A model generated the notes under the pieces. That model was not told the origin of the DNA. It saw nothing but the letters and a program-made list of their open reading frames with translations, and searched no databases. Shown here in pieces: positions 2,416 to 22,823 of a stretch of DNA of 64,000 nucleotides; within the stretch, counting starts at the first letter, position 1, and the number at the start of each line of letters is the position of its first letter. The translations under genes were made by a program, and so were the position numbers. Source of the stretch: an uncultured Clostridiaceae bacterium. Lineage in GTDB: Bacteria > Bacillota > Clostridia > TANB77 > CAG-465. Location: positions 987-64,986 of the forward strand of contig CAMVON010000006.1 in NCBI GenBank assembly GCA_947169155.1, given 5' to 3'.

Positions 2416-3129
2416 ATGGAAAGAGAAAGATTACTTGAGTTAGAACAAAAGTTAAAGTATATTTTTAATAATCATGATTTGCTTAAAATGGCTTTAACAC
2501 ACAAATCTTATGCCTATGAGCATGAAGACCCTAATTATGATAAATATAATGAAAGAATTGAGTTTTTAGGAGATGCAATACTTGAACATATTATTTCAGA
2601 TTTGTTATTTGCACAAGTACCAGAACTTGCTGAGGGGGAAATGACTAAAAAACGTGCTGCAATAGTTTGTGAAGCTTCTTTATCTCAAGCATTGAAAAGA
2701 ATTGGAGGACATGAGTATATATATCTTGGTAAATGTGAGCAAAATTCTAATGGAAAAATGAAGGATGCTATTGTCGCTGATGCTTTTGAAGCTGTTCTTG
2801 GGGCAATATATCTTGATGGTGGTTACGAGATAGCAAGAGATATATGCTTAGAGTTATTAGATCAAGAAATTAAAACTGTTTTATCTGGTGGAAGTTTAAA
2901 TACAGATTATAAAACACAATTACAAGAAATATTACAACGTAATGGCAGTGTTAAAATAGAGTATCGCTTAGCTGGTGAAGAAGGGCCAGAACATGATAAA
3001 ACATTTACAATTGAAGTGTTCTTTAATGATAAGAAAATTGGAACTGGAAAAGGAAAAAGTAAAAAACAAGCTGAGCAAGAAGCTGCTCATCATGCAATAA
3101 TAAATGGAAGTGAAGTATTTGGAAATTAG
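2416..3129 (+). CDS. rnc: Ribonuclease III
   Basis: The RNase III signature ERIEFLGDAILEH is present, followed by a C-terminal dsRBD (KTQLQEILQRNG...GTGKGKSKKQAEQEAA). Confidence 0.95.
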   Translation: MERERLLELEQKLKYIFNNHDLLKMALTHKSYAYEHEDPNYDKYNERIEFLGDAILEHIISDLLFAQVPELAEGEMTKKRAAIVCEASLSQALKRIGGHEYIYLGKCEQNSNGKMKDAIVADAFEAVLGAIYLDGGYEIARDICLELLDQEIKTVLSGGSLNTDYKTQLQEILQRNGSVKIEYRLAGEEGPEHDKTFTIEVFFNDKKIGTGKGKSKKQAEQEAAHHAIINGSEVFGN

Positions 3130-4135
3130 ACTAGATTTAAATGCGGAATTAAAAAATTTCATAAATAAAGATAACCAATATACTATCCCTATTTTTATTC
3201 CACATAAAGGTTGTCCACATGCATGTGTGTTTTGTAATCAAAGACGAATTAGTGGAACAATTAAAGATACAACTGTGGAAGATGTGGATAACATTATTAA
3301 AGAATATTTAGAATATTATCTAAATACAGACAAAAAGATTGAAGTTGCCTTTTTTGGAGGTAGTTTTACTGGAATAGATATTAAACTTCAAGAAGAATAT
3401 TTACGTGTTGCATATAATTACATTCTTGAAGGAAAAATAGATAGCATTAGATTGTCTACTAGACCAGATTATATAAATGATGAAATTTTAACTTTACTTA
3501 AAAAATATGGCGTTAAAACAATTGAGCTTGGTGTTCAATCTATGGATGATAATGTTTTGATGCTTGCTAAACGAGGTCATACAAAAGAAGATGTTGTTAA
3601 AGCATCAAAATTAATTAAAAGTTATGGTATTAGACTTGGACATCAAATAATGATTGGACTTCCAAATAGTACAATTGATACTGAAATATATACTATTAAA
3701 GAATGTTTAAAACTTAAACCTGAACAACTAAGAATATATCCAGTATATGTAATAGAAGATAGTGAATTATATGATATGTATGAAAATAATGAATATATAC
3801 CACTAACAATTGCTGATGCTGTAAAAAGATGTGTCGAAGTTGTTCATGAATGTCAAAAAAGTGATGTGCAAATTATACGTTTAGGGCTTCAAAGTACAAA
3901 TGAAATTACATCTAAAAATGCAAATATTTATGGCCCTGTTTCAGATAATTTTGCTGAATATGTTATGGCTGCTTTGATACGTGATAGAATAGATAAGGAA
4001 AATATTAATAATGAGGATATAGTAGTTTATGTACCTAAAAGATATGTTAGTGCTACTATAGGCCCAAAAAAAGTTAATAAAATATATTTTGAACAAAAAT
4101 ATGGAGTAAAATATATTGTAAAAGGAGAGGACTAG
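3104..4135 (+). CDS. Radical SAM protein (Elp3/TIGR01212-like Fe-S oxidoreductase commonly found next to rnc in Clostridia)
   Basis: The CxxxCxxC motif GCPHACVFCNQ sits near the N-terminus. The ORF overlaps the rnc stop; alternative GTG/TTG starts at 3110 and 3119 are possible. Confidence 0.75.
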   Translation: MEVKYLEIRLDLNAELKNFINKDNQYTIPIFIPHKGCPHACVFCNQRRISGTIKDTTVEDVDNIIKEYLEYYLNTDKKIEVAFFGGSFTGIDIKLQEEYLRVAYNYILEGKIDSIRLSTRPDYINDEILTLLKKYGVKTIELGVQSMDDNVLMLAKRGHTKEDVVKASKLIKSYGIRLGHQIMIGLPNSTIDTEIYTIKECLKLKPEQLRIYPVYVIEDSELYDMYENNEYIPLTIADAVKRCVEVVHECQKSDVQIIRLGLQSTNEITSKNANIYGPVSDNFAEYVMAALIRDRIDKENINNEDIVVYVPKRYVSATIGPKKVNKIYFEQKYGVKYIVKGED

Positions 4136-4600
4136 ATGAAGAAGGTAATTTTTGCTGCAAGTTCAGGTGGACATTTAACAGAGCTTCTAAAAGTTCAAGA
4201 ATTGTTTAAAGAATATGATTATTTACTTGTAACTGAGATGACAGATGTAACTCGAGATTTAAAAGACAAATATAATATTAAATATGTAGATTATGGTCCA
4301 AATAAAAATAAAATTAAGTATTGGTGGACAATATTTAAAAATCTAGCTAAAGCTATAGGTATTGTTGCTAAATTTAGACCAGATACTGTTGTGTCTACTG
4401 GTGCACAAGTTGGTGGATTTTTCTGCTATATTGGGAAATTCTTTGGTGCAAAGGTTATATATATAGAGACTATGGCAAAAATTAAAGAACTTTCTGGTAC
4501 AGGACATAATGTATATAAAATTGCAGATAAGTTTTATGTGCAATGGAAAAGCTTAGAAGAAAAATATGAGAAAGCAGAATATATAGGAAGGTTGATCTAG
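4136..4600 (+). CDS. Alg14-like / PssD/Cps14F-like glycosyltransferase accessory (membrane-anchoring) subunit
   Basis: N-terminal AASSGGHLTELLKV (the GGH motif of Alg14 family members); about 150 aa; immediately followed by the Alg13-like partner. Confidence 0.7.
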   Translation: MKKVIFAASSGGHLTELLKVQELFKEYDYLLVTEMTDVTRDLKDKYNIKYVDYGPNKNKIKYWWTIFKNLAKAIGIVAKFRPDTVVSTGAQVGGFFCYIGKFFGAKVIYIETMAKIKELSGTGHNVYKIADKFYVQWKSLEEKYEKAEYIGRLI

Positions 4601-4601
4601 T

Positions 4602-5069
4602 ATGGTATTAGTAACAGTAGGAACTCAAAAGCAATCTTTTGAAAGATTAATTAAACTTGTTAAAGAAAGCAAAGCGTTAAAAAATGAAGAAATAGTTGTT
4701 CAACGTGGATATACGAAGTGTAATAATTCTAAACGTATACATTCTTTTGATTTTATTCCAATGGAGGAAATGGATAGATATATTGAAGAGTCAGATTTGG
4801 TTATTGCTCATGGTGGCGTTGGAACAATTTTTTCTGCAATAAAAAAAGGTAAAAAAGTAATAGCTGTTCCACGTTTAGAAAAATATGGTGAACATATAAA
4901 TGACCACCAAATTGAGATTTGTGAAGAATTAGAGAAAGAAGGCTACATCTTATACTATAGAGATGGCGAAACTTCTTTAGATGAGCTTATTAGAGAAATT
5001 AAGCATAAAGAATTTGCAAAATATAATTCAGATAGTAATTATATAGATATATTAAGAAAAAATATATAG
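4602..5069 (+). CDS. Alg13-like / PssE/Cps14G-like glycosyltransferase catalytic subunit (GT28 C-terminal domain)
   Basis: N-terminal MVLVTVGTQKQSFERL and the internal IAHGGVGTI motif are typical of the MurG-C/Alg13 family; size 155 aa. Confidence 0.7.
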   Translation: MVLVTVGTQKQSFERLIKLVKESKALKNEEIVVQRGYTKCNNSKRIHSFDFIPMEEMDRYIEESDLVIAHGGVGTIFSAIKKGKKVIAVPRLEKYGEHINDHQIEICEELEKEGYILYYRDGETSLDELIREIKHKEFAKYNSDSNYIDILRKNI

Positions 5070-5078
5070 GAGGTATAT

Positions 5079-5861
5079 ATGACTATAGAAGAATTGGAAA
5101 ATAGAGCAAGACTTTTACGTAAAGATATTGTTGAAATGATATACAATGCTAAATCTGGACATCCAGGTGGATCATTATCATGCATAGATATTATGACTGT
5201 GTTATTTCATGAAAAAATGAATATGGATGAAGATAGATTTGTTTTATCTAAAGGTCACTGTGCACCAGCATATTATGCATGTCTTGCAAGTATAGGAAAA
5301 ATACCACATGAAGATTTAAATACATTAAGAAAAATAGATAGTTATCTAGAAGGACATCCATCAAATAAAATTAATGGTATTGATGTGTCTAGTGGGTCAC
5401 TTGGACAGGGTTTATCTGTTGCAAATGGTATGGCTCTTGCTAAACAATTAGATGGAGAACGTGGTAAAATATATTGTATGCTAGGAGACGGAGAAATTGA
5501 AGAAGGACAAATATGGGAAGCAGCAATGACAGCCAATAAATATTCGTTAAATAATGTAGTTGCTTTTGTAGATTATAATGGCCTTCAAATAGATGGAAGC
5601 ATTATGGATGTTAAAGGTGTGAATAACTTAAAGGAAAAATTTGAAGCTTTTGGATGGAATGTTCAAGAAATCAATGGGCATGACATGCAAGCTATTATAG
5701 ATGCAATAGATAATACTAATGATTCAGATAAGCCTAATGTAATAATTGCTAAAACTATTAAAGGAAAAGGTGTATCATTTATGGAAAACCAAGTTGGTTG
5801 GCATGGAAAAGCACCAAATGAAGAAGAATATAAACAAGCAATGGAAGAACTTTCTAAATAG
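5079..5861 (+). CDS. Transketolase, N-terminal (TPP-binding PP domain) subunit
   Basis: SGHPGGSLSCIDIMTVLF...GDGEIEEGQIWEAAMTA are TK_N motifs of split transketolases. Confidence 0.9.
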   Translation: MTIEELENRARLLRKDIVEMIYNAKSGHPGGSLSCIDIMTVLFHEKMNMDEDRFVLSKGHCAPAYYACLASIGKIPHEDLNTLRKIDSYLEGHPSNKINGIDVSSGSLGQGLSVANGMALAKQLDGERGKIYCMLGDGEIEEGQIWEAAMTANKYSLNNVVAFVDYNGLQIDGSIMDVKGVNNLKEKFEAFGWNVQEINGHDMQAIIDAIDNTNDSDKPNVIIAKTIKGKGVSFMENQVGWHGKAPNEEEYKQAMEELSK

Positions 5862-5870
5862 GAGGGGAAA

Positions 5871-6761
5871 ATGGAGAATATCTCTGTAGAAGACATTAAT
5901 TTTAGGTTAAATAAATTAAAAGAAAATGTCTCTAAAATTAATATTAAAATTGAAGAAAATGATAAAAAGAATCAAGATAGATTTTCATTTGCTAAAGATT
6001 TAGGAATAAGAGTAGATATATTATCTAATGAGATTAATGAAGTAAAAGATGAGCTAGATAAGTATAGTCAAACACTAGATAGTATTATGCAGAAATATGA
6101 TTGTGCATCTGAAGATTCAATAGAGGAAAATGAGTATAAACTTTTGAGTAATATGTTATATTCTGATGATGCAAAATTAAAGAATATAGGAGAAATGCTT
6201 GAAGATAATATTGAGCTTACAACTAAGGAATATATTAATCTATTTGCTAACAAAGCAAATGAACTTATTCGTAAAGAAGAATTAAAAGATATAGATATGA
6301 ATGTGATTAAACTCTCAAAAATTAATTTTATAGAAAAGCTTACTGGAAAAGCAAAAATTAAAAGAGCTTTAATTGAGAACTATAATTTAAAAAGACTTAA
6401 AACAATAAATAAAAAATATGTACCTAGTAATAGAAGTCTATATGAAATAATTAGTATTGCAAATAATTGTGGATATAAATCTAAAGACATAGATTATTTT
6501 GTAAATAGAGTGGTAGAAGAGTTTAAACTAGACAATCCAGAAAACAATGCTATTGCTGTAATTCAAGACAAAAAGAAAATACCATTCTTTTTTAGTAAAG
6601 AATTACTTAATAAGTTAAATGCTGAAAATACAAATCTAGCAGATGATTTAAATAGAAATAAAAATAAACAAGAAAAACTATCTGAGTATTCTATTTATAG
6701 AGAAATGCTAAAAAATGGAGTTGAAACTTTAGAATTATTTAAATTTGAAGAGGTGGTTTAA
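5871..6761 (+). CDS. Hypothetical lysine/glutamate-rich, probably coiled-coil protein inserted between the transketolase subunit genes
   Basis: Strong RBS taggaggggaaaATG; no transmembrane segment and no recognisable domain. Its stop overlaps the start of the TK C-subunit (TAATG). Confidence 0.5.
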   Translation: MENISVEDINFRLNKLKENVSKINIKIEENDKKNQDRFSFAKDLGIRVDILSNEINEVKDELDKYSQTLDSIMQKYDCASEDSIEENEYKLLSNMLYSDDAKLKNIGEMLEDNIELTTKEYINLFANKANELIRKEELKDIDMNVIKLSKINFIEKLTGKAKIKRALIENYNLKRLKTINKKYVPSNRSLYEIISIANNCGYKSKDIDYFVNRVVEEFKLDNPENNAIAVIQDKKKIPFFFSKELLNKLNAENTNLADDLNRNKNKQEKLSEYSIYREMLKNGVETLELFKFEEVV

Positions 6762-7672
6762 TGATATCAACAAGAAAAGCATATGGTGAATTTTTAACTG
6801 AAATTGGAGATAATCCAGATGTTGTTGTACTAGACGCAGATTTAGCTGCTGCTACAAAAACAGACATGTTTAAAAAAGAATATCCTGAAAGACATATAGA
6901 TGTTGGAATTGCTGAACAAGATTTAGTTGGAACTGCTGTGGGTCTTGCTTTAAGCGGAAAAACTGTTTTTGCGTCTACATTTGCAATGTTTATGGCGGGT
7001 CGTGCATATGACCAAGTACGTAATATGGCTGCATATTCACATTCAAATGTTAATTTATGTGCTACTCATGCAGGTGTTATGGTTGGTGAAGATGGACCTA
7101 CACATCAATGTATTGAAGATATAGCAATAATGAATGTTATTCCAACTATGAAAGTATTTTGTCCAGCAGATGGAGTAAGTACAAAAAAGATATTATCTAT
7201 ATGTATGAATGAAGATGGACCAAAATACATTAGACTTGGCAGAAGTGATTTACCAGAGCTATATACAGATGAAGAGTTTCATGTTGGTGGCTCACATACG
7301 TGTGGGGATGGAAAAGATGGTACAGTATTTGCTACTGGTTCTACTGTTTCTATTGCTCTTGAAGCTCAAAATGAGTTAAAAGAAAAAGGTATTAATATTA
7401 GAGTTGTCGATCTTTATAGTATTAAGCCTGTAGATAAAGAAGAAATAGTACGTTGTGCTAAAGAGACTGAAAAACTTGTTACTATTGAAGACCATAGTAT
7501 AATAGGTGGAATAGGAAGTATAGTAAGTGATGTACTTACAGAATTATATCCTAAAAAGGTAGAGAAAATAGGTATAAATGATACCTTTGGTAAGTCTGGA
7601 AAATGGACTGAAGTATATAAATACTTTGGACTTACTAAAGAGAATATAATGTATAAATTTATTCAAGAATAA
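6761..7672 (+). CDS. Transketolase, C-terminal (pyrimidine-binding plus C-terminal domain) subunit
   Basis: MISTRKAYGEFLTEIGDNPDVVVLDADLAAATKT...GIAEQDLVGTAVGLALSGK are typical TK_C motifs. Confidence 0.9.
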   Translation: MISTRKAYGEFLTEIGDNPDVVVLDADLAAATKTDMFKKEYPERHIDVGIAEQDLVGTAVGLALSGKTVFASTFAMFMAGRAYDQVRNMAAYSHSNVNLCATHAGVMVGEDGPTHQCIEDIAIMNVIPTMKVFCPADGVSTKKILSICMNEDGPKYIRLGRSDLPELYTDEEFHVGGSHTCGDGKDGTVFATGSTVSIALEAQNELKEKGINIRVVDLYSIKPVDKEEIVRCAKETEKLVTIEDHSIIGGIGSIVSDVLTELYPKKVEKIGINDTFGKSGKWTEVYKYFGLTKENIMYKFIQE

Positions 7673-7679
7673 AAAAATA

Positions 7680-7716
7680 AAGTAGTTACTTTTAAGTGAC
7701 TACTTTTTTATTTTTC
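7680..7716 (+). terminator. Rho-independent terminator after the transketolase operon
   Basis: agtagttac/gtgactact stem with one wobble pair, then ttttttatttttc. Confidence 0.7.
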
Positions 7717-7743
7717 TAAATCTTTTCTTATGTTAAATTCTCC

Positions 7744-7772
7744 TTGATAATCTATCTAATATATTATATAAT
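7744..7772 (+). promoter_or_regulatory. Sigma-A type promoter TTGATA-17-TATAAT for rarA
   Basis: The -35 is at 7744-7749 and the -10 at 7767-7772. Confidence 0.5.
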
Positions 7773-7807
7773 AGTGTGTGAAATATGTTATTTTTTCGGG
7801 AGGAATT

Positions 7808-9058
7808 ATGGAGCCACTTGCATATAGAATGAAACCTACTAAGCTTGAAGATTTTTATGGTCAGGAAGAGATAGTAGGAAAAGACAAGTTATTATATAGA
7901 CTAATTAAAGCAGACAAGCTTACGTCAGCAATATTTTGGGGACCACCAGGATGTGGAAAAACTTCCCTTGCTCGAGTTATAGCAAGTAGTACAAAAAATA
8001 AATTTGTTACTCTTAATGCAACAACTTCAGGAGTAGCAGATATTAAAGCTGTTGTGGATGAAGCTCAAAATATTTTTACTAATCCTACTGGAAAGGTAAT
8101 ATTATTTATTGACGAGATACATAGATTTAACAAACTACAACAAGATGCACTTTTGCCACATGTTGAAAAAGGTACTGTAATATTAATTGGTGCAACAACA
8201 GAAAACCCATATTTTAGTGTTAATAAAGCGTTAATTTCTAGATCAACAATTTTTAAATTTAAAGAATTGCAACAAGAAGATATTTTAAAAATTCTTAAAA
8301 ATACTATTCAAGATAAAGAGAATGGTCTTGGTAATTATAATTTAGAAATAAGTGAAGATGCACTAAAGTATATAGCAATGTGCTCTAAAGGAGATGTAAG
8401 AACTGCACTTAATGCACTTGAACTTGCTGTACTTACTACAGACATGAATGAAGAAGGTAAAATAATAGTAGATAGAGATATTGCTATGAATTGTGTACAG
8501 CAAAAGAAAGCTGTTTATGATAAAACAGATGATTCACATTATGATGTAATTTCTGCATTTATTAAATCTATGAGAGGCTCAGATCCAGATGCAACTCTAC
8601 ATTATCTAGCTCGTATGTTAGATGCAGGAGAAGATCCAATGTTTATTGCTAGAAGGATTGTTATTCAATCTAGTGAAGATGTTGGACTTGCAAATAGTGA
8701 TGCTTTAAAAGTTGCTGTTGCTGCAATGAATGCTGTTCATCAAATAGGTATGCCTGAAGCAAGAATTATTCTTGCACAAGCAGCACTTACTGTTGCACTT
8801 AGTCCTAAGTCTAATACATCTTATAGAGGAATTAATAAAGCAATGGAAGATGTAAAAAATAGAGATGTTGGAACAGTTCCTATGCATATTAGAAATTCTG
8901 TTGCATCAGGTATGGAACAATTTGGATATGGTGAAGGATATAAATATCCTCATGACTATGATCATGGTAAAGTTGAACAACAATATTTGCCAGATAAACT
9001 TAAAGATGTAAAATACTATGAACCAAGAGAGTGGGAGAATTTTTATGAAGAAGAATAA
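7808..9058 (+). CDS. rarA: Replication-associated recombination protein A (AAA+ ATPase RarA/MgsA)
   Basis: MEPLAYRMKPTKLEDFYGQEEIVG...GPPGCGKTSLARVIA (Walker A) and the C-terminal MgsA domain. The start was chosen at 7808 with RBS ggagg; the ORF-track start at 7778 is upstream. Confidence 0.9.
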   Translation: MEPLAYRMKPTKLEDFYGQEEIVGKDKLLYRLIKADKLTSAIFWGPPGCGKTSLARVIASSTKNKFVTLNATTSGVADIKAVVDEAQNIFTNPTGKVILFIDEIHRFNKLQQDALLPHVEKGTVILIGATTENPYFSVNKALISRSTIFKFKELQQEDILKILKNTIQDKENGLGNYNLEISEDALKYIAMCSKGDVRTALNALELAVLTTDMNEEGKIIVDRDIAMNCVQQKKAVYDKTDDSHYDVISAFIKSMRGSDPDATLHYLARMLDAGEDPMFIARRIVIQSSEDVGLANSDALKVAVAAMNAVHQIGMPEARIILAQAALTVALSPKSNTSYRGINKAMEDVKNRDVGTVPMHIRNSVASGMEQFGYGEGYKYPHDYDHGKVEQQYLPDKLKDVKYYEPREWENFYEEE

Positions 9059-16980: not shown

Positions 16981-16998
16981 AATGACTTCCTTTTTATT
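16969..16998. terminator. Bidirectional terminator hairpin (gaagtcat-gtaaa-atgacttc) between convergent genes
   Basis: An 8-bp perfect stem with a T-run downstream on the plus strand. Confidence 0.7.
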
Positions 16999-18415
16999 TA
17001 TATATACTGTATAAATTCATATCCCAAAATACTCCATTAATGTAGTATGATTTTGATCTTTTCCCATGAAATTTTTCTAGTTTTTTGTGTATCTTGTTTG
17101 ATGCAACGTTAAAAGCAAATACATAACTAGAAACAGCATAGTAACCATTAGATAGCAAAACTTCTATTGATTTATCTAGTGATTTTGTTCCTATTCCTTT
17201 ATTTTGTAATGAAGGTTTGATAGCAAGTTCTAATACAGCGTTTCTTCCTCTCTCATTCATTATATTGATAAATCCACAGTACTCATTTTTGCTATTAATA
17301 AGAACATAAGATAAATTTTTAACTAGTTTTGATATGCCATAATTACCATTGCCTTCTTGAATTATATATTTGTCTTCGCCAAGTGGAATAGAAAAATGTT
17401 CTCTATCTTGCAGTGCATCAATGTGTCCTTTTACAATTGATTCTAAAGAAATATTTAACTGCTTTAATTCTTTAGGTGAAATAGCTGTGTATTCATTATC
17501 TATTTTAAAGATTTTTGGAAGTGTTATTGACTTCAAATCATTTACTTTAATTTTTCTATTTTTTGGTAAATATGTTAGTTTTTCTTTTTCCATTTCTGGA
17601 TAATGTTCAAAAAGATATGCAGATTCAATATAGTCATCATATTCCATAGAATAAGGGAGCACACCATAAAAGTTCATTTTACTTTTAAGTAATGAGTCTA
17701 AAACTATAGTGTTACTTGCTGGCACTTCGGCAATTAAACTATATATATTGTTTCCATGTAAATAATCTATATAATGATTTATTGCTGTTGGCAATATTTT
17801 TTCTGCAAGTTCTTCGTTTGCACTTTCATCTAGTTCTATTTTAATTGTTCCACGTTTGTTTGACCAAATTAATGAGTCTACACTAAGTTTTGCAATTAAA
17901 AAATTTCTAAACATTACATTTACAGGATAATTTTTTGAAGTGTTGTCTTTATCTTCAAATAAGTAAAGTGATTTAAGAGTTGCATCTTTATATAATACGC
18001 AGTTATATTGTGTTTTCATTATTTCTTCATTAATAACTGTGATTGTAGTTGTATTTTCTATTCCTAAATCATTGATAAGGAAATTTTCGTATCCTTCAAC
18101 AATATCGTAAATGTCTGGTTTTGGTTTGCTTTTTTCTAATCCGATTACAATTGATGCATAGTTTTTGCTTGTGTTGATATCTTCAACTCCTATGAACCCT
18201 ATTAGTTCGTTGGTTTTTTTATCTAAAATGCTTCCACGATATGCAGTTGGCATATTGCTAAACATATCATCTACAGCAATTGTATTTTTTCCTTTGTTTT
18301 TTAAAAACATACGACCAATTTCTTTGGCCCTTTCTTCGTAGACATCAAAGCTTCCTATTACATAGTTACCAATGTCTAATTTTGGAATAAAATTCCTACT
18401 ACTATTATAATCCAT
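16994..18415 (-). CDS. GNAT-family N-acetyltransferase, two-domain protein (about 474 aa)
   Basis: The C-terminal GNAT fold is visible (CGFINIMNERGRNAVLELAIKPSLQNKGIGTKSL...YAVSSYVFAFNVASNKIHKKLEKFHG). The start is taken as the internal ATG at 18415, which has an aaggagg RBS; the ORF-track start at 18553 lacks one. Confidence 0.65.
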   Translation of the reverse strand: MDYNSSRNFIPKLDIGNYVIGSFDVYEERAKEIGRMFLKNKGKNTIAVDDMFSNMPTAYRGSILDKKTNELIGFIGVEDINTSKNYASIVIGLEKSKPKPDIYDIVEGYENFLINDLGIENTTTITVINEEIMKTQYNCVLYKDATLKSLYLFEDKDNTSKNYPVNVMFRNFLIAKLSVDSLIWSNKRGTIKIELDESANEELAEKILPTAINHYIDYLHGNNIYSLIAEVPASNTIVLDSLLKSKMNFYGVLPYSMEYDDYIESAYLFEHYPEMEKEKLTYLPKNRKIKVNDLKSITLPKIFKIDNEYTAISPKELKQLNISLESIVKGHIDALQDREHFSIPLGEDKYIIQEGNGNYGISKLVKNLSYVLINSKNEYCGFINIMNERGRNAVLELAIKPSLQNKGIGTKSLDKSIEVLLSNGYYAVSSYVFAFNVASNKIHKKLEKFHGKRSKSYYINGVFWDMNLYSIYK

Positions 18416-18550
18416 AGCAGTTCCTCCTTTAATAATAATTTTTCCGGACAAAGTATAATAAACATCCGCTATTATTATAGCATAATGAAGGATAAAATAC
18501 AAGTTATGTAAACAACATTGCTTTTTAATTGAATATATATTTGAAATTGG

Positions 18551-18580
18551 CAAAAAAATAAGAGCCCTAAGGCTCTTTAT
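18551..18580 (-). terminator. Rho-independent terminator of rpsT (agagcc-ctaa-ggctct)
   Basis: The T-run lies on the minus strand (caaaaaaataa on plus at 18551-18561). Confidence 0.7.
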
Positions 18581-18589
18581 TTATCTTAA

Positions 18590-18844
18590 TTATTTGTTTA
18601 GCATTTTAGCTAAGCTTGATTTTTTTCTAGATGCAGTATTTTTAGCTAATACACCTTTAGTCCAAGCTTTGTCTATTTTGCTAATAGCTTCATTATATAA
18701 TTCTTCTTTATTGCTTGCATTTTCTGCTACAGCTGCTTCAAAAGCTTTTATTGCTTCTTTGTATGCTTTTTTAGTAGCTCTGTTTTGAAGAGTTTTAGTT
18801 TCGATAGTTTTTACTCTTTTTTTAGCTGATTTAATATTTGGCAT
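18590..18844 (-). CDS. rpsT: 30S ribosomal protein S20
   Basis: MPNIKSAKKRVKTIETKTLQNRATKKAYKEAIK... matches S20. The start is at 18844 with RBS aaggaggtg. Confidence 0.93.
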   Translation of the reverse strand: MPNIKSAKKRVKTIETKTLQNRATKKAYKEAIKAFEAAVAENASNKEELYNEAISKIDKAWTKGVLAKNTASRKKSSLAKMLNK

Positions 18845-18943
18845 TAAATTGCACCTCCTTATGCGTACACTTAACGATTTACTTAAACATTGTAGCATAA
18901 AAGGAAATAAAAATCAAGATATTTCTTTAAAAATAATAAAAAA

Positions 18944-20227
18944 CTATTCTTCTGTTGACATATTTCTATATTCAGATGCTAAGTATAGAGAACCAGTGAT
19001 AAGTATTAGGTCTGGATTTTCTTTGCTTAGCATGTATTCTTTAGCCTCTTTTAATGTGTTAAAACTCTTAGCTTCTATGCCTAATTCTTTTGCAATATTT
19101 ACAAGATTTTCTGGCTCTTCAGGTGTTCTATATTTGTTTGATGTGTATTTAACAAATGCTATTTCTTGGAAATATGATCCAATTTCTTCTAAGAAACTTT
19201 TAGGGTCCTTATTACTTGAGAAACTTATTATTGCATAGTTTCTTTTTCCTTTGTATTCATATAAGAAATTTTTTAGTGATCTTGCCCCTGCAGCATTATG
19301 TGAGCCATCTAAAAATACTGTTGGGTTGTCTTGCATTTTTTCAAGTCTTGCTGGAAATTTTGCATCAAATATTCCGTTTGTAATTGCAGAAAATGGAATT
19401 TTATATCCCATATTTATTAATATGTTTGATGCAACAATTACCATTAGTGCATTATATATTTGGAATTGTCCAATTAAGTTTAGCTTATAATATGTACCTT
19501 TATAGCTAAAGTAATTTATGTTGTGGTTACTTTTTATTATATCTAAAAGTTTTATGCTAGGAATAAATAATTTGTTGTTATTTTTTGCACAAAATTTTCT
19601 TATTGTATTTAGTACTTCAGGCTGTTGTTGTGGATAAGTTACTGTGATTTTGTCTGGTTTAATTATTCCACATTTTTCTGTTGCTATTTGCTCTAATGTG
19701 TCTCCTAGTATATGTGTGTGATCATAATCTATAACTGTTATAATTGATATTACTGTTGTTTTAATAACATTTGTAGGGTCAAGTCTTCCACCTAGTCCTA
19801 CTTCTAAACATACAATATCACAATTATTATCTTTAAAGTACATGAATGCTATAGCAGTAATTAATTCAAATCCTATTGGAGCGTCTCCTTCTTTGGTCAT
19901 TTCATCTACAATTGGTTTGATTTTTTCAATGTACTTTGTTAATTCCTCGTTTGTTATATATTCATTATTTATTTGTATTCTTTCATTAAATGAAACTATA
20001 TACGGAGAAATAAATTTTCCTACTTTATATCCACTGTTTTTTAAGACTTCAGCCATCATTGTAGTTGTAGAACCTTTTCCGTTAGTTCCTGTAATATGGA
20101 TAAATTTTAAATCATCTTGTGGATTACCTAATTTATCCATTAGCTTTTCCATTCTGCTGATGTCCTTATCTTGTTTAATTGCTTTTCTGTCTTCATATAT
20201 GTAAGACATTATTTCCTCGTTTGTCAT
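18944..20227 (-). CDS. folC: Folylpolyglutamate synthase / dihydrofolate synthase
   Basis: HITGTNGKGSTTTMMAEVL (P-loop) ... CLEVGLGGRLDPTNV (Mur-ligase/FolC motifs). Confidence 0.9.
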   Translation of the reverse strand: MTNEEIMSYIYEDRKAIKQDKDISRMEKLMDKLGNPQDDLKFIHITGTNGKGSTTTMMAEVLKNSGYKVGKFISPYIVSFNERIQINNEYITNEELTKYIEKIKPIVDEMTKEGDAPIGFELITAIAFMYFKDNNCDIVCLEVGLGGRLDPTNVIKTTVISIITVIDYDHTHILGDTLEQIATEKCGIIKPDKITVTYPQQQPEVLNTIRKFCAKNNNKLFIPSIKLLDIIKSNHNINYFSYKGTYYKLNLIGQFQIYNALMVIVASNILINMGYKIPFSAITNGIFDAKFPARLEKMQDNPTVFLDGSHNAAGARSLKNFLYEYKGKRNYAIISFSSNKDPKSFLEEIGSYFQEIAFVKYTSNKYRTPEEPENLVNIAKELGIEAKSFNTLKEAKEYMLSKENPDLILITGSLYLASEYRNMSTEE

Positions 20228-20260
20228 ATTTAACCTCCAGTCTAACTAAGATGGTATAAA

Positions 20261-20830
20261 TTAAAAGTTAAGTATGTTCTTAATTTCCTCTTTTCCTTTT
20301 TCTGTATCAGTTGATACATTATATACTTTTATATTTGGATATTTATTTTTTATTTCTTCTGCCATCTTAAGATATTCGTTTTGTTGATTTATACTACTTT
20401 CAATATTGAATTTTGCGTATTTTGGAACGGCTTTTCCGCTACGCATTAATCTTTCTTCAAATATTGATGTATCTTTTACATATAATGTAATGTAGTAGAT
20501 ATCAAAATCTAATTTACTAAATCTATCTAATAGTTTATCATATACATCTGTAAAACTATATTCTTTAAAACCTAATCTACAGTATATTTCTTCTGTAAAG
20601 AATGTTCTATCAAATAAAAGATTTATGCTTTTGTTTTCTAGTTTTTCTAGATAATCTAATAAATCTATATACATGTCTTCAGCTTTTTTCTTTCCTTCAG
20701 GAGAACTATCTGAAGTTCCACATAGTCTATATAGATTTGTATATTTTAATCCGTGCCTTATTAAATCTGTTATTGTTGTTTTACCTGCACCTTGAGCACC
20801 TTCGACAACAATTAATTTTGAGTTTGCCAT
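20261..20830 (-). CDS. P-loop kinase of the thymidylate-kinase / deoxynucleoside-kinase fold (substrate unknown)
   Basis: VVEGAQGAGKTT Walker A (Tmk-like ExxGxGKTT), a DRT/ERS-like motif LLFDRTFFTEEIY and a LID-like segment ERLMRSGK. Size 189 aa. Confidence 0.6.
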   Translation of the reverse strand: MANSKLIVVEGAQGAGKTTITDLIRHGLKYTNLYRLCGTSDSSPEGKKKAEDMYIDLLDYLEKLENKSINLLFDRTFFTEEIYCRLGFKEYSFTDVYDKLLDRFSKLDFDIYYITLYVKDTSIFEERLMRSGKAVPKYAKFNIESSINQQNEYLKMAEEIKNKYPNIKVYNVSTDTEKGKEEIKNILNF

Positions 20831-20841
20831 AGAGATATCAC

Positions 20842-21498
20842 CTAGCCTTCTCTTGGAGTTGTTATTAACTCACTATATGGAAATTCTTCTTCAATAAATT
20901 TACAGAAGTCTCTAAATTCTCTTTGCTTGTGATTTTTTCTTGCTCTATATACATTTCTCATAGTTTCATAGTTTCCTGTCCATGTTGATCTAAAGTTGTA
21001 GTTTTGAGGAGAATCAAAAACTATATCTCTCCACATACGAGTTGCTTCTTCCATTTTACCATCAGCTTTTAGTTGTTGGTATTCTTTTATTCTTCTATTT
21101 AAATCTTCCATTACATATTTTCTAAATGGAGTTATTTGAATATTTCCATCTTCGTCATCAAAACTAAAATCTTCTTCTGTTAGAAGTCTAGTTCCAAGTT
21201 TATGCATTCTACTTGTACTGTTTCTTACTGTTGCTACTTTATATGTATCAAAGTCCCACCACCAAGACATAGGTGCTGTTATATCCATTGATACAAATAT
21301 TTGTCTTAAAAATTTAGAATGGTCTGATCCAGATTTTGTTAGTTTAAGTGCTAACTCTAGGTCTTTAGGACCAACTACATATTTTCCTGTTTCTTTATCA
21401 TAATAACTATCACTTTTGCTCCATGATTCTAAAGGATTCCTCATTCCTCTTAATGCTCCTTCAAAATTAAGGACTTCTAAATTTTCAATTTTTATCAT
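20842..21498 (-). CDS. ThyX-fold (flavin-dependent thymidylate synthase superfamily) protein lacking the canonical RHR motif
   Basis: Aligns by eye with T. maritima ThyX: ours DHSKFLRQIFVSMDITAPMSWWWDFDTYKVATVRNSTSRMHKL versus [42 protein letters not shown]. The downstream S..R is kept but RHR is replaced by DTY(K). The C-terminal block NFRSTWTGNYETMRNVYRARKNH resembles [23 protein letters not shown]. Confidence 0.6.
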   Translation of the reverse strand: MIKIENLEVLNFEGALRGMRNPLESWSKSDSYYDKETGKYVVGPKDLELALKLTKSGSDHSKFLRQIFVSMDITAPMSWWWDFDTYKVATVRNSTSRMHKLGTRLLTEEDFSFDDEDGNIQITPFRKYVMEDLNRRIKEYQQLKADGKMEEATRMWRDIVFDSPQNYNFRSTWTGNYETMRNVYRARKNHKQREFRDFCKFIEEEFPYSELITTPREG

Positions 21499-21713
21499 AT
21501 ATTATTACCTCCCCAAATATCAAAAATATGATACTACAAATTGATAAAATGTTCAATGGAATTTGTATAATGTAATATAAAATATAAGAGTGGTAATGTT
21601 GTTGTCACAATAGGTGTTTTAATTTATTCTTTATGTAAATTATGGTATAATATATATGTGAGCAATATTATATTTTGCTTTGAAAAAATTTTTTAAAAGG
21701 GAGGTCTCTAGAT

Positions 21714-22130
21714 ATGAATAGAGAAAATTTCAAAGAAGCTTTATGCGGTACGGTTGAGGCTTATGCAAGCGTAGTATTTGTAGGATGTGGATTAGGATTA
21801 CTTGCTTTATTTACTTCACCAATATGGTGTGGGATATTAACACTTTTAGGTGTGATAGGACCTGAAAATGGTATGGCTGCTCAAGCTAGTGCAGTTTTAT
21901 TTAATTTTATATGCTTAATGGTATTTGTGTGCCACTATACTGATAAATTAATTAAAAATAGAATTTTGAGTGTTGTTGCATATTTTGTTATTATGGCTGC
22001 ATTATTAGGATTATTAATGTTATATGTTAATGAAACATTAAAAATTTCTACACTTACCGCTGTTATTTTAGGCTTTGTTAATATTGGTATTGTAGCAATA
22101 CTTATCATTGATTGGTTGAAAAACCAATAA
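21714..22130 (+). CDS. Hypothetical integral membrane protein (4 predicted TM)
   Basis: A hydrophobic 138-aa ORF with RBS agggagg. Confidence 0.5.
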   Translation: MNRENFKEALCGTVEAYASVVFVGCGLGLLALFTSPIWCGILTLLGVIGPENGMAAQASAVLFNFICLMVFVCHYTDKLIKNRILSVVAYFVIMAALLGLLMLYVNETLKISTLTAVILGFVNIGIVAILIIDWLKNQ

Positions 22131-22134
22131 AAAA

Positions 22135-22160
22135 TCTGGTTAAATAACCAGAATTTTTTT
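22135..22160 (+). terminator. Rho-independent terminator (tctggtta-aa-taaccaga + T7)
   Basis: Stem at 22135-22152, then tttttttg. Confidence 0.8.
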
Positions 22161-22252
22161 GCTTTTATTACAGAAAAATGTCGATTTTTAAAGGTTACTT
22201 TTTATTCTCGAAAAAATAAGTAAATCTTTTTACATAAATTTTAGAAAAAAGC

Positions 22253-22281
22253 TTGATTTTTTATTAATAGTAATGTATAAT
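22253..22281 (+). promoter_or_regulatory. Sigma-A promoter TTGATT-17-TGtTATAAT (extended -10) of the S10 operon
   Basis: -35 at 22253-22258, TG at 22274-22275 and -10 at 22276-22281. Confidence 0.6.
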
Positions 22282-22505
22282 ATGGGTGTTGATTTGCGTT
22301 GAAGTAGAATGTGGCTACCCAGCGAGGTAGGGAACTTCTATGGAGCATGTCTGATTTTAAATCGGGCGGCAAGTATAGAATTAACATGTATTTGCCAAAT
22401 TACCACTTGTGTGGAATTTGGTTTTAATATATGTAAAATGTGAAACACACGGGGTGGTGTAAAACTTGTCAAACCGACAGATGTTAGAAAAGGAGTGTTT
22501 TACAT
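22282..22505 (+). promoter_or_regulatory. About 220-nt structured 5' leader of the S10 operon (candidate L4-mediated autoregulatory leader)
   Basis: A long untranslated region between the promoter and rpsJ, with several GC-rich hairpin segments such as ggctacccagcgaggtagggaac and cacacggggtggtg. Confidence 0.4.
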
Positions 22506-22823
22506 ATGTCAAAAGAACAAACTAAAAAAATGAGAATAAGACTTAAAGCTTATGATCACGTTGTGCTTGAACAAGCAGCAACAAAAATTGTTGAAGTAGC
22601 TAGAAAAACTGGTTCTGAAGTATCAGGTCCAATTCCACTACCAACAGAAAAAGAAATCATTACAATATTACGTTCTCCACACAAACACAAAGATTCAAGA
22701 GAACAATTTGAAATGAGAACTCATAAAAGAGTTATTGATGTATTATCACCAAACCAAGCTACAGTTGATGCTCTAATGTCAATTGATATGCCAGCTGGTG
22801 TTGACATCGAAGTAAAATTATAA
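22506..22823 (+). CDS. rpsJ: 30S ribosomal protein S10
   Basis: [23 protein letters not shown]... Confidence 0.97.

Follow-up and report, generated by a model that had tools for sequence, protein, structure and literature searches.

A probable thymidylate synthase on a distinct branch of the ThyX fold, encoded with a thymidylate-kinase-like protein and folC in an uncultured Clostridiaceae bacterium

A 64-kb stretch of DNA from an uncultured Clostridiaceae bacterium (contig CAMVON010000006.1; this whole stretch is referred to here as the window) encodes a 218-amino-acid (aa) protein related to the thymidylate synthase ThyX, followed on the same strand by a P-loop kinase and by folC. Our analysis suggests that this protein is probably a thymidylate synthase belonging to a new branch of the ThyX fold, and that it is followed in its operon by a kinase of the thymidylate kinase (Tmk) type and by FolC. 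The ThyX-like enzyme would convert deoxyuridine monophosphate (dUMP) and 5,10-methylene-tetrahydrofolate to deoxythymidine monophosphate (dTMP), the divergent 189-aa thymidylate-kinase-type enzyme would convert dTMP to the diphosphate dTDP, and FolC, produced from the same transcription unit, would supply the polyglutamylated folate cofactor. Both the catalytic activity itself and the cofactor of the ThyX-like enzyme are what we infer from the fold, motifs and gene context described below. To our knowledge only two families of thymidylate synthase, ThyA and ThyX, are recognised. The link between dTMP synthesis and the recycling of folate in cells is defined by these two, and ThyX is pursued as a selective antibacterial target. 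The three genes are located as follows.

20842..21498, minus strand: ThyX-fold protein, 218 aa, proposed thymidylate synthase.
20261..20830, minus strand: P-loop kinase of the Tmk/deoxynucleoside kinase (dNK) superfamily, 189 aa, proposed dTMP kinase.
18944..20227, minus strand: folC (folylpolyglutamate synthase / dihydrofolate synthase), 427 aa, matching TIGR01499, with Mur_ligase_M and Mur_ligase_C domains.

ThyA yields dihydrofolate, which is why thyA is coupled to folA, the gene for dihydrofolate reductase (DHFR). Reading gene context within at most 10 kb around each match, we found a DHFR gene (PF00186, 142 bits) directly downstream of the ThyX-like gene in 16 of 68 loci outside the lineage of the window, often with a 4-bp overlap between the two genes. 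These loci fall into two clades that are ~52% identical to each other and almost entirely cellular, and the flanks of the two are unrelated (e.g., CbiC, NlpC/P60, NUDIX and NfnAB-like genes). We also searched metagenomes with a DHFR query, and among the 80 loci collected in this way the gene directly upstream of folA was ThyX-like in 38 and thyA in 34, with both present in none; of the remaining eight, four were truncated and two others had LexA or dUTPase upstream. Thus, in other Bacillota the ThyX-like gene takes the thyA slot upstream of folA and is mutually exclusive with thyA. Canonical ThyX was found in none of the loci examined, the DHFR-anchored ones included. Bacteria in which no DHFR can be recognised mostly rely on ThyX instead of ThyA (PMC1971073; PMC7824862), whereas this family is tightly linked to DHFR, and the presence of a ThyX-fold protein in the thyA slot is for this reason the most informative result of the analysis. 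The tight coupling to DHFR also suggests, without proving it, that the folate product is dihydrofolate, as with ThyA. Compared with ThyA (EC 2.1.1.45; PF00303), the ThyX-like protein occupies the same operon position and would possibly carry out the same overall reaction, but it has an unrelated fold, and no cysteine is invariant in its family (among 289 relatives, position 95 is Cys in 131 and Thr in 141).

One pair of locus types points to an exchange between the two synthases. A thyA-folA locus (L219) and two loci of the ThyX-like-folA type (L198 and L203) are 89% identical in nucleotide sequence over a stretch that starts at position 3106, ~140 nt inside folA, and extends to the contig end, and show no similarity upstream of this point, which puts a recombination breakpoint within folA. 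In its encoded protein, the next gene after folA is 94% identical between L219 and the ThyX-like-type loci. The pattern suggests that one synthase was swapped for the other at the same locus.

The assignment of the 218-aa protein to the ThyX fold, first made in an annotation from the sequence alone (the first-pass annotation), is borne out by structure prediction. An AlphaFold2 model covered the full length of the protein with very high confidence (predicted local distance difference test score, pLDDT, 95.8), and every top Foldseek match to it was a ThyX, with template modelling (TM) scores of 0.55-0.71. At the sequence level the relationship is faint. The match to Pfam Thy1 (PF02511) that the annotation had called for was indeed found (E=1.8e-4, 21.8 bits, residues 58-205), but it lies below the gathering score of 24.8, and the score for TIGR02170 was 22.6 bits, where the cut-off is 87.9. 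The protein also matched phrog_6721, a family with no assigned function (E=6.5e-62), and a PADLOC search gave no match. Sequence searches of the PDB found no ThyX with either the single protein (E<=10) or the family profile (E<=1), so fold comparison is the sole link from this protein to solved structures. The relationship to ThyX is therefore real but remote.

We aligned the T. maritima (Tm) and M. tuberculosis (Mtb) ThyX sequences, checked against the PDB, to the family. Four blocks are common to both: A-x-R-G-x-R...S-W-S-K, which is nearly identical to GRACYQSWSK of Mtb, A-P, T-G-N-Y and R..H...E. The window protein carries A15-x-R17-G18-x-R20-N-P...S25 near its N-terminus, then K62/R65, A75-P76, T85-Y86-K87 and N93-S94-x-S96-R97-M98-H99, and W173-T174-G-N176-Y-E178 and R187..H190..E194 towards its C-terminus. 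The motif reading of the first-pass annotation thus stands: the A-P, W-T-x-N and R..H blocks (A75-P76, W173-T174-x-N176 and R187..H190..E194) align with those of ThyX, the S..R pair is kept (S96/R97, opposite ThyX S88/R90), and the RHR of the ThyX signature RHRxxS...SxR is lacking, with T85-Y86-K87 in its place in the proper alignment. A further difference from ThyX is the replacement of the lid residue Tyr91 by Met98. The change from RHR to TYK is not decay: TYK is itself near-invariant across 289 diverse relatives (Y86 in 289, T85 in 281 and K87 in 274), as conserved as RHR is in ThyX. Similar conservation was seen for R20 (287), S25 (286), K62 (287), R65 (289), S96 (288), R187 (281), H190 (283) and E194 (277 of 289), and altogether ~20 polar positions hardly vary among relatives that are only 40-50% identical.

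The changed residues lie on the cofactor side. In ThyX, RHR forms hydrogen bonds to the AMP phosphate, the ribityl chain and the FMN phosphate of flavin adenine dinucleotide (FAD), whose phosphates are also held by Ser71 and Arg190 of the Mtb enzyme; the first Arg of RHR alone also touches the isoalloxazine ring and dUMP (PMC6514825). By sequence alignment, Mtb Ser71 corresponds to K62 of the window protein (287 of 289 relatives) and Mtb Arg190 to E178 (223 of 289), TGNYR in Mtb being TGNYE in the window protein. Each ThyX residue known to hold the FAD phosphates thus appears to be changed in the family, which suggests that FAD is bound differently or not used.

On the substrate side, counterparts are kept for the uracil-binding Arg (Tm R174/Mtb R199, here R187) and for the H...E after it (H178 and E182, here H190 and E194), as well as for S88 (S96). 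The dUMP ligands of Mtb ThyX are Arg87, Ser105, Arg107 and Arg199 (PMC6514825), and three of these four have counterparts in the window protein (S96, R97 and R187). R97 is typical only of the subclade of the window, as position 97 is R in 26 and T in 228 of the 289 relatives. Residues 81 and 97 occupy the positions of R74 and R90, which hold the dUMP phosphate in ThyX, and they covary: K81 occurs with a non-basic residue 97 in 228 sequences, a non-basic residue 81 with R/K97 in 38, and both are basic in none. This is part of a correlated four-position swap, with K81/A92/T97/R171 in most members and W81/R92/R97/S171 in the window type. The latter type also includes the phages phiCTP1 and PMBT24. 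The covariation fits a retained anion pocket, and the pattern as a whole suggests that it is the cofactor site that has been rebuilt, not the substrate phosphate site.

The neighbouring gene encodes a Tmk/dNK-like P-loop kinase, as had been annotated, with the motifs G11-A-Q-G-A-G-K17-T-T and D74-R75 and a flexible lid at ~129-140. Among profiles, phrog_761 'thymidylate kinase' matched over residues 1-183 (E=4.3e-9) and TIGR00041 (dTMP kinase) over residues 1-73 (E=5.6e-6, 26.2 bits, cut-off 83.25), while PF02223 gave 16.3 bits and the dNK family PF01712 matched at the P-loop only with 11.5 bits, both below gathering scores of 27. The kinase is thus below the curated cut-offs of both families, although it shares with Tmk and dNKs the P-loop, the D-R after strand 3, the lid and the fold (TM 0.55-0.64); a PADLOC search gave weak P-loop matches only. 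Several orthologs ~72% identical to it carry PF02223 in a precomputed table. Its structural model (pLDDT 88.5) matched Tmk (3tmk, 2ccg) and deoxyadenosine kinase (2jas, 2jaq) with similar scores, and the substrate of the kinase is therefore not settled by its fold.

The same slot downstream of the ThyX-like gene holds a Pfam-positive Tmk in an 80%-identical sister (L099) and in a locus that is not closely related (L159), a DNMK-like kinase accompanies the gene in the viral contig L007 and a Tmk in L076. These kinases share little beyond the P-loop with one another, and the window kinase itself resembles the Tmk at the corresponding position of L099 in the P-loop only. In viral loci, too, a 'nucleotide kinase' is often found directly upstream of the ThyX-like gene (21 of 82), with dUTPase, MazG and NrdD/G nearby. 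Non-orthologous dTMP/dNMP kinases thus recur beside ThyX-like genes, and their repeated recruitment suggests that the product is a nucleoside monophosphate, namely dTMP. The ThyX-like protein of L007 is 71% identical to that of the window, and a nucleoside 2-deoxyribosyltransferase-like gene (7189-7614) follows the ThyX-like and kinase genes there. We considered the window's own kinase as a general partner of the family and rejected this, since neither 80 viral loci nor 67 other genome loci contain it. The annotated pairing with this exact kinase and folC is instead confined to one narrow lineage, that of the window (relatives at least 82% identical).

The three genes appear to form one transcription unit. 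The ThyX-like and kinase genes are co-oriented neighbours, as annotated, and the sequence of their junction (TAG, 11 nt, ATG) corrects the reported gap of 12 nt to 11 nt. The 33-nt gap to the co-oriented folC was confirmed on the sequence (TAA, 33 nt with GGAGG, ATG). FolC itself is recognised over residues 24-423 by TIGR01499 with 355.6 bits, above the cut-off of 162.65, and the tie of the locus to folate and thymidylate metabolism that the annotation had drawn is supported. The remaining features of the locus are the following.

18590..18844, minus strand: rpsT (ribosomal protein S20), 84 aa in the gene calls of identical contigs, where a PF01649 gene lies at the matching position (L003-L006).
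18560..18577: bidirectional terminator-like hairpin, the first such site downstream of the four co-oriented genes.
21499..21713, minus strand: intergenic region upstream of the ThyX-like gene, with several sigma-70-like matches (e.g., 21523-21494).

No terminator-like site was found between 21498 and the hairpin, ahead of which rpsT is the last gene. The number of promoter-like matches in the upstream region was not above shuffled expectation. The operon lies between the S10 ribosomal operon and rpsT, that is, in the core chromosome and not in a prophage. No ThyA, ThyX, DHFR or further tmk was found within the window, which has a G+C content of 29% and whose proteins are 99% identical to those of a contig from the sheep-gut Clostridia metagenome-assembled genome RGIG5622.

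In a collection clustered at 90% identity, the ThyX-like protein has 6531 homologs, and at 50% identity the family comprises 3285 clusters. For the kinase, 2224 homologs were found; with thousands of homologs each, neither is a chance open reading frame (ORF). Carriers include >600 viral contigs and >540 genome loci, the latter from a scan with a 13-sequence family alignment, and the named carrier phages infect Clostridium, Clostridioides, Enterocloster, Fusobacterium and Desulfovibrio. RefSeq and UniProt label the proteins of Anaerocolumna, Zhenhengia, Hungatella and Lachnoclostridium 'hypothetical' or 'uncharacterized', and the NCBI name 'FAD-dependent thymidylate synthase' is borne only by the protein of the window's lineage. 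Our literature search found no published description of the family, in line with the annotation's view that the system had not been described. The family thus makes up a large, separate branch within the ThyX fold, most of it unannotated. Six members of 400-478 aa (P0139, P0149, P0193, P0211, P0218 and P0263) carry in-frame HNH_3 and NUMOD4 domains, with or without HTH, in the middle of the enzyme; these homing-endonuclease modules may have inserted into the genes, or may represent introns that the gene caller failed to recognise and read through.

If the family does the same job as ThyA and ThyX, its thousands of members, invisible to Pfam and labelled 'hypothetical protein' in Lachnospiraceae isolates and phages, would mean that thymidylate synthesis is wrongly scored as missing in reconstructions of many gut anaerobes. 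Whether a flavin is present, and whether the folate product is tetrahydrofolate or dihydrofolate, bear on antifolate and trimethoprim sensitivity and on the evolution of ThyX chemistry.

Several observations weigh against the reading of the three genes given above. The 218-aa protein misses both curated ThyX thresholds (PF02511 and TIGR02170), only eight of 44 relatives show a Thy1 match at E<=0.01, and the ThyX phosphate ligand R147 has no counterpart in the window protein. The fold of the kinase matches deoxynucleoside kinases as well as Tmk, and the link to folC, confined to one lineage, is missing in L098 and in the sister L099. In addition, the viral contig L076 (IMGVR_UViG_3300045988_164467) holds the only locus with both a ThyA-like gene (PF00303, 86 bits) and a ThyX-like gene, and the two are therefore not always redundant; its positions 3603-8462 encode Tmk, the ThyA-like protein, dUTPase, the ThyX-like protein and a NodU/CmcH-type carbamoyltransferase, a gene set that may be a hypermodification cassette.

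A more specific version of the thymidylate synthase reading is possible, though we hold it only tentatively. The family may represent a third mechanistic kind of thymidylate synthase, in which the ThyX scaffold has lost the ThyX FAD site and, with no flavin or with a re-sited flavin or other cofactor, oxidises methylene-tetrahydrofolate to dihydrofolate as ThyA does. This would explain the repeated replacement of thyA in thyA-folA operons of anaerobic Bacillota, as well as the frequency of the family in phages of these bacteria. ThyX itself (EC 2.1.1.148; PF02511, TIGR02170; PDB 1O26, 3AH5, 2AF6) remains the closest known system, with a common fold. PolB (PDB 4P5A), a ThyX-like UMP/dUMP C5-methylase of polyoxin biosynthesis, keeps flavin chemistry; its deposited entry bears the name of ThyX, and it belongs to an antibiotic biosynthesis cluster, whereas the present family lacks the ThyX motif and is found in housekeeping and phage replication contexts.

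The prominence of the family in phages raises the alternative that it makes a modified pyrimidine nucleotide (e.g., 5-hydroxymethyl-dUMP or a C5-modified dCMP) for DNA hypermodification, with a dedicated kinase, and that the bacterial copies are domesticated phage genes. Consistent with this, there are >600 matches in phage contigs, where the gene belongs to modules for replication and nucleotide metabolism that also contain dNMP kinases and MazG: among 82 viral loci, a 'nucleotide kinase' is directly upstream in 21, and other common neighbours are MazG, dUTPase, NrdD/NrdG and helicases. The pairing of ThyA-like and ThyX-like genes beside a carbamoyltransferase in L076 points the same way, and in phages the genes of nucleotide metabolism are typical sites of homing-endonuclease insertions. 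However, cellular copies form almost entirely cellular clades and occupy core contexts, such as that between the S10 operon and rpsT or, elsewhere, between cobalamin-biosynthesis and cell-wall genes. They also hold the place of thyA ahead of folA, at no DHFR-anchored locus alongside thyA itself, and a hydroxymethylase would leave the DHFR coupling unexplained. We therefore consider this alternative unlikely.

The model put forward in the first-pass annotation, C5 methylation or hydroxymethylation of a pyrimidine nucleoside that carries no phosphate, followed by phosphorylation of the product by the companion kinase, now appears very improbable. It drew on the absence of RHR, whose arginines were taken to hold the 5'-phosphate of dUMP, and the lack of an R147 counterpart and the likeness of the kinase model to deoxyadenosine kinases as much as to Tmk would also agree with it. 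However, the inference about the substrate fails because the role of RHR was mistaken: the motif chiefly binds the FAD phosphates and only its first Arg touches dUMP (PMC6514825). S96 and R97 are kept, three of the four dUMP ligands have counterparts, and positions 81 and 97 covary as expected if they line an anion-binding pocket. Nor is a nucleoside kinase role supported by the profile matches, which favour dTMP kinase (TIGR00041, phrog_761) over dNK (11.5 bits), or by the true, Pfam-positive Tmk in the same slot of L099 and L159. The replacement of thyA ahead of folA also counts against the model. The order dUMP to dTMP to dTDP is the simpler pathway.

Finally, a non-catalytic ThyX relic that binds nucleotide or folate as a regulator or sponge might be expected from the loss of the canonical cofactor motif and the lack of a curated family match, but it is hardly credible given the ~20 near-invariant polar positions, including the counterparts of ThyX R174, H178 and S88, the consistent placement of the gene in operons with DHFR or Tmk, and the confidently predicted full-length fold.

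A second gene neighbour recurs at the DHFR-linked loci. Genes for NfnA/PyrK-like and NfnB/GltD-like (Fer4_20 and Pyr_redox_2) proteins follow folA in L133, L164, L130 and many of L188-L207, and an NfnA/PyrK-like gene is likewise found after folA in the thyA-type L219, where it is cut off by the contig end. A GltD/NfnB-like flavoprotein near the ThyX-like gene was seen in ~10 genome loci and many metagenome loci. As a dedicated reductase partner specific to the family it was rejected, because the gene that lies between folA and the flavoprotein gene in the ThyX-like loci also stands downstream of folA in the thyA-type L219, with 94% identity; the neighbour goes with folA and not with the type of synthase. 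The Nfn-like genes after folA may reflect NADPH supply for DHFR.

The operon of the window is flanked by genes of other kinds. A 138-aa hydrophobic protein, with no Pfam match on record in identical contigs, is encoded divergently from it (21714-22130, plus strand). With Rfam, no riboswitch was detected ahead of the operon in 18400-22600; the sole match was an S10-Clostridia ribosomal-protein leader (RF03136) upstream of rpsJ (22291-22372, plus strand), with 33.8 bits, just below the gathering score of 35.1. Downstream of rpsT (16994-18553, minus strand) lies a long protein with GNAT acetyltransferase domains, which is kept in related contigs; it is a 519-aa ORF in the window and is called as 473-474 aa in those contigs, from a later start.

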